Assembly: GCA_963730935.1 (NCBI GenBank)
Contig: CAVSTP010000004.1
Span: 1,757,091 to 1,821,090, forward strand
DNA length: 64,000 bases
From: an uncultured Nitrospiraceae bacterium
GTDB taxonomy: Bacteria; Nitrospirota; Nitrospiria; Nitrospirales; Nitrospiraceae
Direction: 5' to 3'
Position numbers: made by a program. Numbering within the stretch: position 1 is the first letter of the stretch; each line of letters begins with the position of its first letter. Shown in pieces: positions 1 to 45,000 of this stretch.

Positions 1-3000
1 GTATGGTAGCAGCATAGTAGCAGAGGGCACCTTATCCCAGAGCGAGAGAAACTACTGTCCGGAGTCCTAGGGCTAATGTTGCGCTCACGCCACCGCGCCG
101 GCATTCATTCTCGCTGATAGTCATTCGAATACCTACGAAGACACACTAAGGTTTTTGCCTTGGGTGTTACTAGGTGAACGCCTAGTCTCTTATGCCGAAC
201 AGTTTATATATATACTCTGTGGCGAGATGAACCCGTATTGTAGTGAGTGATATGAGGCCATTTTCACCGTAGGAGCTAGAAATGACGCGATTGTCCAGAA
301 GGCCACTGGCCTCAACACTACCCCTATTGCTGTTGGCAGGCCTGTTCCTTAACGCGTGTAGCAGTGGTGGAGGCGATGGAAGCGCAGGCACTCCGCCGGG
401 AAGCCCTCCGCCGTCTGGACCCACACCCCCACCGCCCGTCGCCGGACTCGTTCAGCAAGGCTATCTTAAAGCGTCAAATACCGGCGCTAACGATAATCTT
501 GGATTTAATGTCGTGCTTTCCGGTGACACGCTGGTCGTGGGAGCCCCGCAGGAAGGAAGTAGTGCGACTGGGGTGAATGGCGATCAAGCGAACAATAACG
601 CGCAAAACAGCGGCGCCGTCTATGTCTTCACGCGGACCGGCGGCGTCTGGACCCAGCAGGCCTATCTCAAGGCCTCGAATACCGACGCTAATGACCAGTT
701 CGGGGTAGGCGTTGCGATCTCAGGCGACACGCTTGCGGTTGGAGCGCAGTTTGAGGCCAGCAATGCGACGGGCATCAATGGCGATCAGACCAACAATAGT
801 GCGCCCCAGGCCGGAGCCGTCTATGTGTTCACGCGGACCGCAGGGGTCTGGTCTCAGCAGGCCTACCTCAAAGGTCATAATACTGAAGCGGGCGACCAGT
901 TCGGCGTCAGCGTGGCCGTAGAAGGCGACACGTTAGCCGTCGGAGCGATCGCCGAGGCCAGCAATGCAACGGGCGTCAATCATGATGGGAGTAACAATAA
1001 CGCGCCAGGCAGCGGCGCCGTCTATGTGTTCACGCGGACCGCAGGGGTCTGGTCTCAGCAAGCCTATGTCAAAGCCTCAAACGCCGGAGGCCTATTCGGG
1101 AATAGTGTTGCTCTTGCCGGCGACACGCTCGCGGTGGGCGCGCAGTTTGAGGCCAGTAATGCGACGGGCGTGAATGGCAATCAGACCGACACAAGCGCGC
1201 CGCTCGCCGGAGCGGTGTATGTGTTCACGCGGACCGGAGGGAACTGGACTCAGCAGGCCTATGTCAAGGCCTCGAATACCGATGCCGAGGATAGATTCGG
1301 AGAAGATGTCGCTCTAGACGGTGACACCCTTGTGGTCGGAGCGCGGTTTGAAGCCAGTGCTGCAAGCGGGGTCAATGCCGATCAGACCGACAATAGTGCG
1401 ACCAACGCCGGAGCCGCCTATGTCTTTACACGGACGGCGGGGGTCTGGTCTCAACAAGCTTATCTCAAAGCCTCCAACGCTGGCACTGGTAAGAATTTCG
1501 CCGGAACCATTACCATTGCGGGAAATATCGTGGCTGTTGGTTCACGGCTCGAAGATAGCAATGCGACCGGGATCAATGGCAATCAGGGGAACAATGGCGC
1601 ATCGGATAGCGGCGCGGTCTATGTGTTCAAGCGTACCGCCGGGGTTTGGGAGCAGACAGACTATTTAAAAGCCTCCAACACGAACGCGGGGGACCAGTTT
1701 GGGGATGCTGTCGCTATCTCTGGCAATACGCTAGCCATTGGAGCATGGTTTGAAGGAAGCAGTGCGACCGGCGTGAACGGCAATCAAGCCGATAACAACG
1801 CCCCAAACAGCGGGGCCGTCTATGTATTCGACGGTCTGTAAGGGCATCAACGGATGACTTCATTCTTGGGATGGGGGACCGTGCTCGTCTAGCGCATGGC
1901 CGGCCACTGATGATTTGATAAATAATCAGAGTTTAGTCAACCATGCACCGAGGTTCGGGAAGGGGCAATCCAGCGGTAATGTCGCAGGCATACTGCCCTG
2001 ATACCTAACATGTCACCAAAGGCCGAAAAGAGAGGGCCATGACCTGCGTTTATTAGTTCGCTGCCATTTCACAAACTCCTAACAGAGGGCGCAGTTAGAA
2101 AGTCCTTCCACCATACGGCTACCGGTTAAAATCGAACTTGTGTTAGCGGAAGGTGCTGGAGCCGGAGACCCCAGGGCATTGAATGGTGCTATGCAGGTAA
2201 TCGCCCGAGATACGTCTGACCTATCAAAACAAGGGTTTTCACCCATGTCAGAACTGACAGTAGGCAGGACTCTTGCCCGATGGTAGAAGTCTCTCAAAAA
2301 TGGAGTTGACCTCGAGTCAGGCTTCGCAGATCCCGCAGGCCGTCGTGGTATGTGGAGTCTACAGCCGGTCCAGATCTCGCAGGTACTCTCCGCAACATCT
2401 GGAGGCGATGGCTGAATACTTTTGAGCTTCCACCCTCCGTGGTATGCACCCTTCAATGGCAATGGCAATGGAAAGGAGGTCGTGATGGGTTTCCTCGCTA
2501 CAATCTTTGAAAAGCTCGGTTTTGGCCCTGCCGCTGCCCAAGCAGCTCCCGAGGCCACACCGACGGCGCCTTCGAGGGCGATCACTGCAATCGATGTCGT
2601 TGCCAAGCTCGAGAACCTGGCAGGCAAGCGCGACGAAAAGCTCAATTGGAAGGTGTCGATCGTGGATCTCCTGAAGCTCCTCGGAATTGACAGTAGCCTT
2701 AATGCGAGAAAGGCACTGGCCACAGAGCTCGGATGTCCCGCCGAGAAAATGGGCGATTCGGCGCAGATGAACATGTGGCTGCACAAGACAGTGCTGAAAA
2801 AGCTAGCTGACAATGGAGGCAACATTCCGAAGGAACTCGTGGATTAGTGGAGCCGAGAAACGAATGGGAAGTGTCTTGCTTGCCGAAGCAGCTGGCAGCG
2901 CGTTCGCGCATGCGCGTCAGTTCTCGTGCGTAAACGCTCAATCATCTCACCGCAGAATGGAGATATGCCGATGGACATTACAAGTCTCATCATCAACCTG

Positions 3001-42000: not shown

Positions 42001-45000
42001 AACTCCAACTGGCGAGGACCGATCTGGATGCCGGTGAACGCCATGATTATCCGGGCGCTCCTCAATTTTTACCTCTACTACGGCGACAATTTCACCATTG
42101 AATGCCCCACTGGGTCCGGCAAGATGATGAACCTCTTCGAGGTCTCCAAGGAGATCGCGGATCGGCTGAGCCGGATCTTCCTGCGTAATGAACAAGGGAA
42201 GCGTCCAGTCTATGGAGGCACGGCACAATTCCAGTCTGACCCACACTGGCGCGACCACCTCCTCTTCTATGAATATTTTCACGGCGACAACGGGGCGGGG
42301 CTGGGCGCGAGCCACCAGACCGGCTGGACTGGCCTCGTGGCCAAACTTATCCAACTCTACGGCCTGCTGGATGGGAAGCGGGCCCTGGAAGGGGGCAAGA
42401 AGGCTGCGTTCAAGAAAGTCAAGGGATGAACGCTTGGCAGAAATATCCCGTCATCTATGAGGTCAACACCTGGGTCGTGTTGAGTGTGTTGAGCCGGAGG
42501 TAAACATGGTTTCTCCCAAGAGACTTCAGCTGCTTTGGTTCTTTTCGAGCGTGATCATCCTTGCGGGCTGTGGAGAATTAGCCGTACAGGATACGACGAG
42601 TCTGTTTTTCCCCGGCTTTCAAAGGTCTGAAGTCGTCGGCTTTGTGGCGGGATTAGGAACGACCTTTGCCGCTCTGCCGGATTTGATCGGGATGCTCAAG
42701 CGGAGGTCAAGCAAAGGCATGAATCCGAGGATGGCTGCCATTATGGGGACGTTCCAAATCGTCTGGGTCTACTATGGGTTACTGATCGCTTCAAGACCCG
42801 TGATCGTGTGGAATATGGTCGCCGTGGTAATCAATGGGATTGCCGTCGGCGCCTACTTCTATTTTGCGCAGCGCCAAACGGCATTGTAACGAGTAGGTAG
42901 TTAGGGGACGTATACCCCAGACCATGGTTAGGTTTTCGATGACTTTGACGTATCCTCCGCCTGTCCCAAAACAAATCTTAATTGAAATGTGGATAGCATG
43001 AAGTGATGGACGGGTATGACAACTCAGCCAGCAGACGGCGCTTTGCCACAGGATTCTTCAGCACAATCCTGCTCGTCCTGCTCGCCAGCACGACTTCGAT
43101 CATAGACACTGTGGCGTGGGCGAATGGTGAACTCCCTGATGCCCTGCGCAACATGACCTTGGACAGGCAATTTCTAGCCGATTTGGCGGCGATCAGGGCA
43201 TGGCGTCGGGAAGGCGGTCGTCTGCATATGGATCTCACGGGTGGCGGGACGATGGTTTTCACGGCAGCGAGCCGTGAGCAAGCCTATTGAAGGGAAAGTA
43301 AGAAAGCAGTCTTGACAGCGGTTTATTAGTCCCCTCCCCTTCCTGATTATTCAGAGGACAAGAGCAGTTATAGGTACCTGCTACCTTACGGCTACCAGGA
43401 TGGAAGGGTTCAGAGAATTCCGGAATACATTGGAAGGATGGTGTTCCCAATCGGAATGTGACCCTTTCAATGCCACATCTCGCCCACCTTGTCATCCCGT
43501 TTTCCGGGGAAATTAGGAGGGCAGCCTGAAGAAGGCCACTAATTTATGGGTAGGATCAACTCTCGGTATGATCTGAGTGACCTGCGGTTTACGAAATTCC
43601 GAGAATCCAACCTCAGACAACCTAATAACCTAACCCCAAAAGAAACCACGAGTTATCCACCTCCCAAGAATACGCCGAAACGGAGGATTGACAACAGTCA
43701 ACTCAAGGCTCGATGGTAATGTACGTCACTTATAAAAGGAGGGACCTCATGAAAAGGTCAGCGAGCGATATCATTCAGAGAGTCGGAGCACACGTCGGTT
43801 TTATCGCGGTACTGCTTGCTCTGCTGCTCTGCGCACCAGGCCGAGGCTTGGCAGATGACGCCAGCGACGCCAAAAAGTTGATCGATCAGGCCGAAGGCAC
43901 ACTGAAGAACTTCATGAACGACCCGGACATTCAGGGGTTCAGCAAGCTCCTGCAGGGCGCAGCAGGCGTCTACATCGTGCCGAGACTCACGAAGGGTGCC
44001 TTCATCTTCGGCATCGAAGGCGGCAACGGCGTCGTGCTTGCGCGTGATGCAAAAACCGATACATGGAGCGAACCGCTATTTTATGAAACCTCGGCGGTCA
44101 GTTTTGGTCTCCAGGCAGGAGCCCAGTCACAAGAAGCCATCGTGTTGATCATGACGCCCCAAGGGATGGATAGGCTGTTGTCGAGCACAGTCAAGCTTGG
44201 CGTCGACGGATCTGTCGCGATCGGGCCGAAGGGAGGGGGAGTTGAGGGAACGCTTGCGGACTTCGTGACCTTCACGCGCGCGAAGGGATTGTACGCTGGA
44301 GTTTCCTTCGATGGAGCGTCGATCCGGACAAGGGACGACCTCAATGCCGCCTATTTTGGAGAGGACGTGCGTCCGTCGGACATTATTATTGCCCATAAGG
44401 CCAAACCGAATCCCAATTCCAAGGAATTGCAGGCCAAGCTGGCAACGGCCGGTGCGAAACAATAGTAGACAGCGGAGGCTCGCCACTTTTCCCAATAGTT
44501 TGTGTTGTTCCTTCAATTTGGTCACGGTTCCGTTCTGAGCTAGGCCTTCAACCGCCTTATAGAGGCGAGGTGCGATTGCAGTGGGAGTCTGTGCAGGAGG
44601 GTAAGCGACCCGCCGTTTTCTAAGCCTTTCAGACACTTCCACACAACGCCTTATCAGGACAGCGGAACGTCGCTACAGCAGTGGATTTTCGCTGTTTTGT
44701 CGGATCAGTTTTACTCAGGTGAATTCAGGTGGATTTAGCCGGTTTTTGCCGTAGAGAGAACACGCTGGGAACACATAGGGATAGTATGTACTTCCTCCAG
44801 AGCCCTGCGCGATATCCACTTAGCCTAACCGGGCTCGACATATCCAGAAACGACTCGGCCGCGAACGAGATCATCTACGCCATAGTTCTCCAGAATAAGC
44901 CGGGTACTTGATGCTCGGTAATTCGCCATTCGGTTGGCCGGATGATCAGCGGAATGCTCGGTCAGGGTAAAAGGTCTGGTGTCCCCAACGGGACTCTCAG

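Follow-up and report, generated by a model that had tools for sequence, protein, structure and literature searches.

This locus raises the question of what the 132-nt repeat that stands between its accessory genes is, and which recombinase built the array. The preliminary description had read the repeat as the recombination arm of integrase-less gene cassettes, stacked in trans by a resident tyrosine integrase of the g00213 type. The window (the whole 64-kb stretch analysed here) contained seven copies of this repeat, here named arm A and located by profile search, together with the other features listed below.

The repeat and its array

1..21, minus strand: 5' end (arm-site repeat) of arm A copy 7; the remainder lies before the window (full copy C4:1756994-1757111 = window -96..21)
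2041..2131, minus: arm B site (inverted arm-site repeat, ~45 nt, core)
2157..2171, minus: decayed tRNA-Thr 3' end, directly before the B site
3996..4121, minus: arm A copy 6, core decayed
16028..16043, minus: decayed tRNA-Glu(TTC) 3'-end copy (att junction)
19254..19269, minus: tRNA-Glu(TTC) 3'-end copy (att junction)
21060..21075, minus: tRNA-Glu(TTC) 3'-end copy, 71 nt past arm A copy 5
21146..21277, minus: arm A copy 5 with core
22404..22533, minus: arm A copy 4 with core, not followed by a tRNA end
28970..28985, minus: decayed tRNA-Glu 3'-end copy, 131 nt past arm A copy 3
29116..29248, minus: arm A copy 3 with core; the core has a 1-nt insertion
37843..37934, minus: arm B site
37950..37965, minus: tRNA-Glu 3'-end copy, flanked by arm A copy 2 and the B site
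38059..38190, minus: arm A copy 2 with core, the top-scoring copy
43316..43406, minus: arm B site, core decayed
43439..43454, minus: decayed tRNA-Glu 3'-end copy, 125 nt past arm A copy 1
43579..43654, minus: arm A copy 1, 3' half (model positions 65-132 only), with core
43579..44623, minus: core-to-core integrase-less unit enclosing a Ysc84-family gene (43713-44465, plus); 94.7% identical in relative G048, at another locus
44606..44623, minus: armless core that starts the Ysc84 unit
44977..44992, minus: perfect tRNA-Glu 3'-end copy, putative attR of the serine-recombinase element at the window end
46959..46976, minus: lone arm-site repeat without the remainder of arm A
62326..63822, plus: large serine recombinase gene (Resolvase + Recombinase), reading toward the contig end; homologs abut tRNA-Glu(TTC)

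A search model built from 16 full copies gave 34 matches at E<0.01 in the genome, while the best match in the reversed genome had E=0.86. At E<1e-6 the genome holds 30 copies, of which 21 span at least 115 of the 132 positions; the earlier counts of 29 and 20 thus change little, and the co-orientation of all seven array copies on the minus strand was reproduced. Arm A consists of an arm-site repeat, a ~100-nt spacer, the anticodon-loop core and an 11-bp right core site. Its ends are as sharp as first described, since the information over 118 dereplicated downstream families falls to ~0 bits one base past the right core (10-11 nt). The 11-mer previously singled out does occur 31 times in the genome, but its chance expectation on both strands (Markov orders 0, 3 and 5) is about 2 rather than 0.5.

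The second arm family, arm B, is equally real, with 17 genome matches (3 in the window) where 8 had been reported; its model was trained on 15 of the 17. Arms A and B have only 13-17 nt in common, the overlaps of B sites varied, and no integrase for arm B was found in 43 upstream flanks. We rejected the idea that A and B are the outward-facing ends of one transposon-like element, as the sites are co-oriented in 65 cases versus 2 in outside loci (28 versus 8 in the host genome); these site counts are not independent, because the loci were picked around A/B sites and come from related organisms. Of 51 A/B matches, 24 lie within 25 kb of a tRNA gene, compared with 34% at random, a weak nearness that is partly due to contig breaks parting two arrays from their tRNAs.

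The segments between the arms measure 1-17 kb, have a GC content of 50-58% and carry operons on both strands. Their description as low-GC islands of small orphan genes holds in part: the GC of the surroundings is mildly low (0.542 versus 0.575 +/- 0.024), but the cargo is not made up solely of small orphans and includes ars genes, a two-component pair, a sulfatase, a FadL-like porin and a glycosidase. Twenty sequencing runs share 0.21-0.39 of the words sampled from window positions 36000-45500, a figure that we do not count as evidence.

Integrons consist of an IntI integrase, an attI site and attC cassettes. The array resembles them in that co-oriented sites punctuate accessory genes, but the label integron-like does not fit: the best TIGR02249 score was 86 bits against a cut-off of 265, hairpin sites did not show up among the window sites, and multi-gene segments with genes in both orientations occur at many loci, instead of mostly single-gene, co-oriented cassettes. 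All five window sites examined folded as DNA no better than shuffled sequences (z -0.68 to +1.12). This, the lack of Rfam matches in the window and the position of arm A at the end of complete integrative elements make it extremely improbable that the repeat is a regulatory RNA, a REP-like repeat or an attC-type single-strand hairpin, even if it is intergenic, multicopy and sharply bounded.

The probable tyrosine integrase of arm A

From its sequence, arm A is the attR half (P arm and core) of tyrosine-integrase elements that enter tRNA-Thr and tRNA-Arg genes. The block of identity begins at the 7-nt anticodon loop and reaches the tRNA 3' end at the true target. A Thr/Arg 3' half follows 43 of 153 A sites, and 29 of 31 copies with such a half are exactly 132 nt long, compared with 58 of 82 others; copies away from these tRNAs have more indels. 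The earlier statement that five cores run into a complete tRNA-Thr 3' half needs qualification: at C4:988389 the match is 22 nt only, and arm A is present only at C3:40479 and C4:1002327, the core at C3:16776 having a g00213-type arm.

Complete elements support the earlier reading of the repeat as P arm plus anticodon-loop core. In these, one two-word arm repeat occurs at both ends, over the 3' end of the integrase gene next to the tRNA and at the start of arm A. Such a common arm-type repeat beside a Phage_integrase gene was found in L179 (5 kb, at tRNA-Thr(TGT)), in G001 (43 kb, at tRNA-Thr(CGT)), in G022, where the integrase stands at tRNA-Arg(CCT) and arm A with the Arg half is on a different contig, and in remnants. 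The predicted cognate of arm A, found in relatives, is a tyrosine integrase of ~430 aa, targeting the anticodon loop of tRNA-Thr(CGT/TGT) and tRNA-Arg(CCT). One copy of its gene occupies L179:5552-6832 and another lies in G001, and an Xis-like HTH_17 gene is its neighbour. We also considered whether arm A could be a coding tail of this protein: in a circular form the integrase reading frame would stay open through arm A (463 and 470 aa versus 426 and 429). New stops in this frame across arm A number 8 versus 17.5 expected, with another frame equally depleted (24 versus 40.6).

These elements speak against the integrase originally proposed. In its favour, an intact g00213 gene stands next to tRNA-Thr(CGT) and shares the core with arm A, which directly adjoins g00213-type ends in G001 and L148, and at least one composite island has been published whose hybrid att sites could be excised (PMC5704250). 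However, 11 of 13 g00213-type loci carry a different arm repeat at their own att site, g00213 has its own P arm at C3:16622, and it is only 31% identical to the cognate integrase over 174 aa. The junction in G001 on which the tie had rested is a tandem hybrid, the meeting point of two intact elements: one bounded by arm A and encoding another integrase, and behind it in tandem one of g00213 type, both ends of which carry a repeat of its own. We therefore reject g00213 as the cognate and consider stacking in trans by a resident integrase of this type very improbable.

In the host genome we found no intact cognate integrase, only a 38-aa remnant; nothing resident was thus demonstrated to stack the array in trans, and at present the array would be passive for that enzyme. 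Viral contigs yielded neither relatives of the cognate integrase nor an exact match to the start of arm A. A family-wide search for a tRNA end with an inverted repeat picked out 3 of 371 genomes, which all belong to the host genus, and brought up no integrase. Integrase-less units bounded by such sites do exist and move, so this part of the original claim stands. Two have lost the integrase and kept attL and attR, as CIMEs do: C3:25679-28485, with an attL carrying the arm repeat and the 38-aa remnant and with arm A 2.8 kb further, and a 1.8-kb element at tRNA-Arg(CCT) in G048. The cognate attL is missing from most units of the window.

Anticodon-loop (site A) tRNA islands with heterobivalent tyrosine integrases, as described by Islander (PMC4383910) and for the mv4 integrase, are alike in several respects: the 7-nt loop serves as the overlap, the flanking stem holds the core sites, direct repeats of arm type are present, and the integrase gene extends across att, the last noted for Mx8 and SSV. 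The Nitrospira sites differ in their high copy number, their reuse away from tRNAs and the varied overlaps of B sites. Tycheposon islands of Prochlorococcus are likewise seeded at tRNAs; one integration after another enlarges them, and partial tRNAs and pieces of integrases lie dispersed within them (bioRxiv 10.1101/2020.12.28.424599). The array was nevertheless not tycheposon-like by the quoted defining feature: compared with the published description, the cognate integrase of arm A faces outward across the tRNA half and not inward, and the passages of that preprint used here do not describe a dispersed arm.

tRNA-Glu and the serine recombinase

The seven tRNA-Glu 3'-end copies and the large serine recombinase had gone unmentioned in the preliminary description. 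By sequence comparison, they show that the units of the window are stacked in tandem at tRNA-Glu(TTC), and large serine recombinases are the probable builders of this array. Homologs of the recombinase stand beside tRNA-Glu(TTC) at three of three loci, and the target end, with its predicted crossover, is repeated between units. Four of the seven window arms stand 71-131 nt inside a Glu 3'-end copy. Such nesting is seen across the sites as a whole: among A sites without a Thr/Arg half, a different tRNA or tmRNA 3' end follows within 250 nt downstream in 23 of 90, and occurs upstream in 1 of 101 and on the other strand in none. B sites show the reverse, with another tRNA or tmRNA 3' end upstream of 13 of 44 and downstream of 0 of 44. 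Short modules of the order A, core, tRNA end, B, core recur with Glu and Thr ends.

Sites without a Thr/Arg half (154 of 204) lead into 118 unrelated downstream sequences. Random chromosomal secondary sites are disfavoured as the source of their right cores, which are near-perfect, clustered and co-oriented; in addition, 10 matching Glu-element ends of the two commonest types, which lack arm A, also lack the core.

Exchange at the sites

We consider it somewhat more likely than not that arm A, the distal att half of tRNA-Thr/Arg elements, persists as relic sites that are reused as swap points for cargo. Each integration would leave one arm A behind; elements would then shed their integrase and interior, becoming CIME-like, and their ends would remain co-oriented in stacks. 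Reuse may follow two routes, either homologous recombination or conversion between the ~80% identical arms, which would be the commoner trace, or crossover within the 7-nt overlap, catalysed by a cognate integrase brought in from outside, which would require no more than the 11-bp right core downstream. Ends that had become joined to the termini of other elements (tRNA-Glu serine-recombinase, tmRNA, tRNA-His and -Ala) would ride into those hot spots, giving the nested window pattern of tRNA end, B site, cargo, A site, spacer and tRNA end. The first joining of the core to the 118 unrelated sequences is left unaccounted for by this proposal.

The observed exchanges bear on two more extreme readings. 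The first is a live two-tier cassette system, in which A and B sites are maintained boundaries, the cognate integrase of passing autonomous elements excises and inserts core-cargo-arm units in trans, and short B-ended units with a foreign att (from a Glu, Thr or tmRNA end) serve as adaptors by which cargo reaches other tRNA hot spots. Consistent with this, 101 of 147 non-tRNA sites keep an unaltered right core, and 132 of 147 one with no more than a single mismatch, while the following sequence is unrelated, the spacing from arm to core is mostly exact, and the short modules recur. An 854-nt segment (97.7% identity) that starts inside the overlap stands behind arm A in G010 and behind arm B in the host genome. 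The 1-kb Ysc84 unit switches at the core at its left end; at its right junction, 9 mismatches in the last 27 nt place the crossover inside the arm, and it is the only unit for which a core at either end was shown in two genomes, which counts against site-specific reuse. Such a live system is unlikely: there is no resident integrase and no platform site, the right halves lack arm sites of the arm A family, and lambda-type excision normally requires arm sites on both partners. Moreover, the ends of most shared genes lie away from the cores. Shared-segment ends fell near cores in 8 of 346 cases, with no significant enrichment over a shifted null (mean 4.4, sd 2.0, max 12). Of 16 listed alignments that cover DNA just downstream of a host-genome core, 2 begin within it, 3 represent the tRNA-Thr locus itself and the remaining 11 set in 18-149 nt beyond it: window genes such as SLT and DUF2130 move without these sites. 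These two results count against the proposed reuse of relic sites as well. In the assembled sequences no excised or circular form was seen.

The second reading takes every copy as a dead attR whose conservation mirrors the parental elements, with shuffling by RecA-type exchange or transformation on arm homology. In 11 of 14 close pairs the switch falls within the arm, the trace expected of homologous recombination, and in 7 of them the first mismatch lies near nt 32-35; this weighs against the live system as well. A ComEC gene is present, the non-tRNA copies have the excess of indels given above, and the similarity among copies of one hot spot (0.776) does not exceed that between hot spots (0.779). 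Entirely inert scars are nonetheless distinctly unlikely. The 13-17 nt common to A and B are too short for ordinary homologous recombination, yet switches occur in the overlap; L143 is identical to L156 and L198 over 300-400 nt and the entire arm and diverges right behind the core; and 73 of 118 families have A as the purine at core position 11, where the Thr/Arg genes have G. Eight of ten upstream-cargo families are followed by more than one downstream sequence.

Overall, the proposed reuse of relic sites amounts to CIME-like accretion with an unusual reuse of one att half across hot spots, a variant of known island growth. As far as the published account used here goes, CIMEs and tandem ICE/IME accretion of the ICESt1/ICESt3 type likewise involve loss of the integrase, retention of att sites, stacking at a gene end and hybrid att junctions of unrelated integrases (PMC5704250). 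The host arrays differ from that account in that one att half is spread over many non-cognate tRNA hot spots, mostly without tRNA half or partner arm and nested in the ends of serine-recombinase elements. Searches of open-licence papers turned up neither an account of this arm nor one of arrays of this kind in Nitrospira. A bolder version is conceivable but doubtful, namely a two-tier, recombinase-agnostic cargo system in which one tyrosine-integrase att half serves as a genus-wide universal cassette boundary, a visiting integrase moves core-bounded cargo, and adaptor units carrying the att site of some other recombinase (tRNA-Glu serine recombinases, tmRNA, tRNA-His) route one and the same cargo into hot spots at different tRNAs.

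The analysis provides sequence-level boundaries for the movement of accessory genes between islands in a nitrifier lineage that is widespread. It also singles out one particular integrase, together with an arm repeat and an 11-bp core site, all of them open to testing in E. coli. If the sites are only portable homology, they represent a tidy case of known island accretion. If partnerless relic half-sites are real substrates, cargo can pass between hot spots of unrelated recombinases, and this movement would be invisible to tools that require an integrase and a tRNA fragment for each island.

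Arm A and its cognate integrase

The preliminary description reported a sharply bounded 132-nt repeat, and this is confirmed by our searches: BLAST and a profile built from 16 full copies gave 34 matches at E<0.01 in the genome, while in the reversed genome the profile found nothing below E=0.86. Thirty copies of this repeat, here called arm A, reached E<1e-6 and 21 covered at least 115 positions; the core 11-mer occurs 31 times versus about 2 expected. The reported co-orientation also holds, with all seven copies of the window array on the minus strand. The accompanying interpretation was partly right, but two points need correcting: the identity of the integrase and the tRNA that hosts the window array. 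An exact or near match to the start of arm A is present in 17 of 32 congeneric genomes other than this one, and BLAST detected the arm in 13 of 24 congeners versus none of 16 genomes of other families. No description of arm A, or of arrays of this kind in Nitrospira, turned up in the open-licence papers searched.

A metagenome scan for the arm A start returned 122 loci. Locus L179 holds a complete 5-kb element inside tRNA-Thr(TGT), in which a 426-aa Phage_integrase gene reaches with its 3' end into the arm repeat near the tRNA and the far end is closed by arm A and a tRNA half. Homologs of this integrase with 70% and 73% identity, at tRNA-Thr(CGT) in relative G001 and tRNA-Arg(CCT) in relative G022, have the same repeat, which is also carried by homologs of 54–55% identity at tRNA-Lys(CTT). 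Comparison of these elements identifies arm A as the predicted attR half of elements of this cognate integrase. Homologs of at least 70% identity and near full length were present in 2 of 33 genomes. None was found in this genome at E<=1e-25; a 38-aa remnant with its repeat lies at C3:25792-25890, within a tRNA-Thr stack. The region C3:12-40 kb contains four tRNA-Thr 3' ends and is probably a stack behind tRNA-Thr(CGT), the contig join being inferred. IntI was not found.

Stacking of the cassettes had been ascribed to g00213, the resident integrase beside tRNA-Thr(CGT), acting in trans. This must be abandoned, since all intact g00213-type ends have a repeat other than that of arm A (11 of 13 loci, the remaining two being one variant and one truncated fragment). 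In G001, the cognate-integrase element spans 43 kb up to arm A, and behind it stands an intact g00213-type element whose own repeat is present at either end; the junction that had suggested the assignment is therefore a tandem hybrid of two intact elements. By these comparisons, g00213 has arms of its own, and its distal arm lies at C3:16622. Besides the integrase, the g00213 element (C2:3267-6015) contains an Xis-like small gene, a gene for a Rep_trans initiator and another small gene of HTH-like type. The attR of this element probably lies beyond a contig break, at C3:16622-16815.

The cognate integrase gene (L179:5552-6832; also at the G001 tRNA-Thr locus, L251) crosses the core and the 3' half of the tRNA in antisense direction, and integration would therefore exchange the integrase C-terminus. 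In the circle form, the frame would remain open across the whole of arm A, giving 463/470 aa versus 426/429.

Anatomy of the two arms

Arm A consists of a two-word direct repeat with an 11-nt period, a spacer of ~100 nt and a 7-nt anticodon loop, which is that of tRNA-Thr(CGT) or tRNA-Arg(CCT); the arm closes with a right core site identical to the tRNA positions after the loop. Across 118 unrelated downstream families, the right core site comprises 10 nt at 1.1–1.8 bits, followed by a purine (109/118) and nothing beyond. The second family, arm B, shares this right site but has a different overlap, and it carries the arm repeat in inverted orientation about 57 nt upstream of the right site. 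When B cores outside this genome were picked solely by their core pattern, the inverted arm repeat was present at 15 of 37, versus 0–1 in control windows. The exact B core occurred in 11 GTDB records, nine titled Nitrospirota or below and one Gemmatimonadales. The arms fold no better than shuffles and match no Rfam family, and no integrase remnant was found in 43 upstream flanks of arm B. The B core, including the A after it, resembles the anticodon arm of the CAT-anticodon tRNA at C4:14485 (compare C3:876827, C3:879278 and C3:36084), and arm B may derive from elements aimed at that tRNA.

Several cores are followed by a short, perfect-looking inverted repeat (C2:880863-880905, C3:17176, C3:28486 and C2:318787); the one at C2:880862 leads into a tRNA-His element end. 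Arm-type repeats of other integrase families (loci L143, L121, L163, L219, L204, L247 and C4:835253) lie within 80 nt past the core at 11 of 147 sites versus 1.1 after shuffling; in a far window, the count was 6 of 128. A few palindromic sites, in which two right cores abut back to back (L031:15557, L174:11018-11044 and L115:4383; one of them borders a 3.7-kb insertion in relative G048), suggest that recombination may occasionally proceed in reverse orientation.

The window as a probable stack at tRNA-Glu

The window carries seven copies of the tRNA-Glu(TTC) 3' end, all on the minus strand, and comparison indicates that it is a stack of such ends. Its main features are:

Window 17345-19233, between two Glu ends: ArsR, SBF-family transporter and LMW phosphatase (arsenate-reductase-like) genes
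Window 56632-63822, newest Glu element: DUF3631 gene and AbiTii-domain gene beside the recombinase
Window 62326-63822: large serine recombinase gene, ending close to the contig end

A second copy of the recombinase (C1:187240-188226) adjoins the tRNA-Glu gene on C1, as do the homologs in G016 and G022 (3/3 loci). Because the ends of C1 and C4 match the two flanks of one Glu 3' end, and homologous flanks lie on both sides of the tRNA-Glu island in the complete genome G046, we infer that the window represents the older portion of a tandem stack located at tRNA-Glu. Sequences flanking the Glu copies group into inverted-repeat pairs, as is expected of serine-recombinase att halves; several att-half types paired in this way occur at the Glu elements. 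The open-licence literature searched yielded no paper on a large serine recombinase paired with the tRNA-Glu(TTC) 3' end. As of 2014, only tyrosine integrases were known to target tRNA genes, according to the part of PMC4383910 available.

Four of the seven arm A copies in the window sit 71–131 nt ahead of a Glu end, and each of the three B sites comes after a tRNA end. This placement is general beyond the window: among A sites without a Thr/Arg half, another tRNA or tmRNA 3' end lies within 250 nt downstream in 23/90 and upstream in 1/101, and among B sites such an end lies upstream in 13/44 and downstream in 0/44.

Exchange at the arms and its proposed mechanism

We compared 204 distinct sites, of which 153 A and 48 B had enough flank. 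A Thr/Arg half follows 43 A sites and one B site; 154 other sites fall into 118 downstream families. Eight of ten upstream-cargo families were found with more than one downstream sequence, one of the eight varying only in tRNA-Thr isoacceptor. Three cases count for site-specific exchange. Locus L143 matches L156 and L198 without a difference across 300–400 nt and the whole arm, and diverges directly after the core. A segment of 854 nt (97.7% identity) starts within the overlap both in G010, where it lies behind arm A, and in this genome, where arm B precedes it. The integrase-less one-gene unit at window 43579-44623 has a 94.7% identical copy at a tRNA-Asn locus of G048, begins at the overlap of the left core and has unrelated flanks on both sides. 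Against such exchange count the right end of this unit, with nine mismatches in the last 27 nt, and the alignments sharing downstream DNA, 11 of 16 of which begin 18–149 nt beyond the core; overall, the breakpoint count did not exceed the null. A further point against it is that, in 14 pairs with upstream identity of at least 95% and unrelated downstream DNA, arm mismatches were far above expectation in 11, with an onset near nt 32–35 in seven, which points to exchange or conversion within the arm. ComEC is present in the genome. Comparison shows that some cargo has changed neighbours at or within the arm. Arm copies inside one hot spot are no closer than copies from different hot spots, so local duplication is not how the window array grew. 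An SLT transglycosylase gene (window 20243-21033) recurs at 93–96% identity at other loci in G044, G045, G047 (twice) and G048, with ends away from the cores.

Among the closest known systems, in the excerpts available of both sources, are CIMEs with tandem accretion (PMC5704250) and tycheposon-built islands (bioRxiv 10.1101/2020.12.28.424599). Anticodon-loop sites and integrases reaching across att are treated in the accessible part of PMC4383910, and mv4 tolerates core variation, as far as the available excerpt goes; PMC12884075 had nothing to contribute. The arm array works like a cassette array, yet it is no integron. We consider a two-tier adaptor system unlikely. The core is joined cleanly to many unrelated sequences, with a preference for an A after it. 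In the mechanism we propose, cognate elements would decay into CIME-like units, which lack the integrase and keep their att sites. The relic sites would serve again in homologous exchange and occasionally as substrates of a visiting integrase, and arm sites would be carried to foreign hot spots within the ends of other elements.
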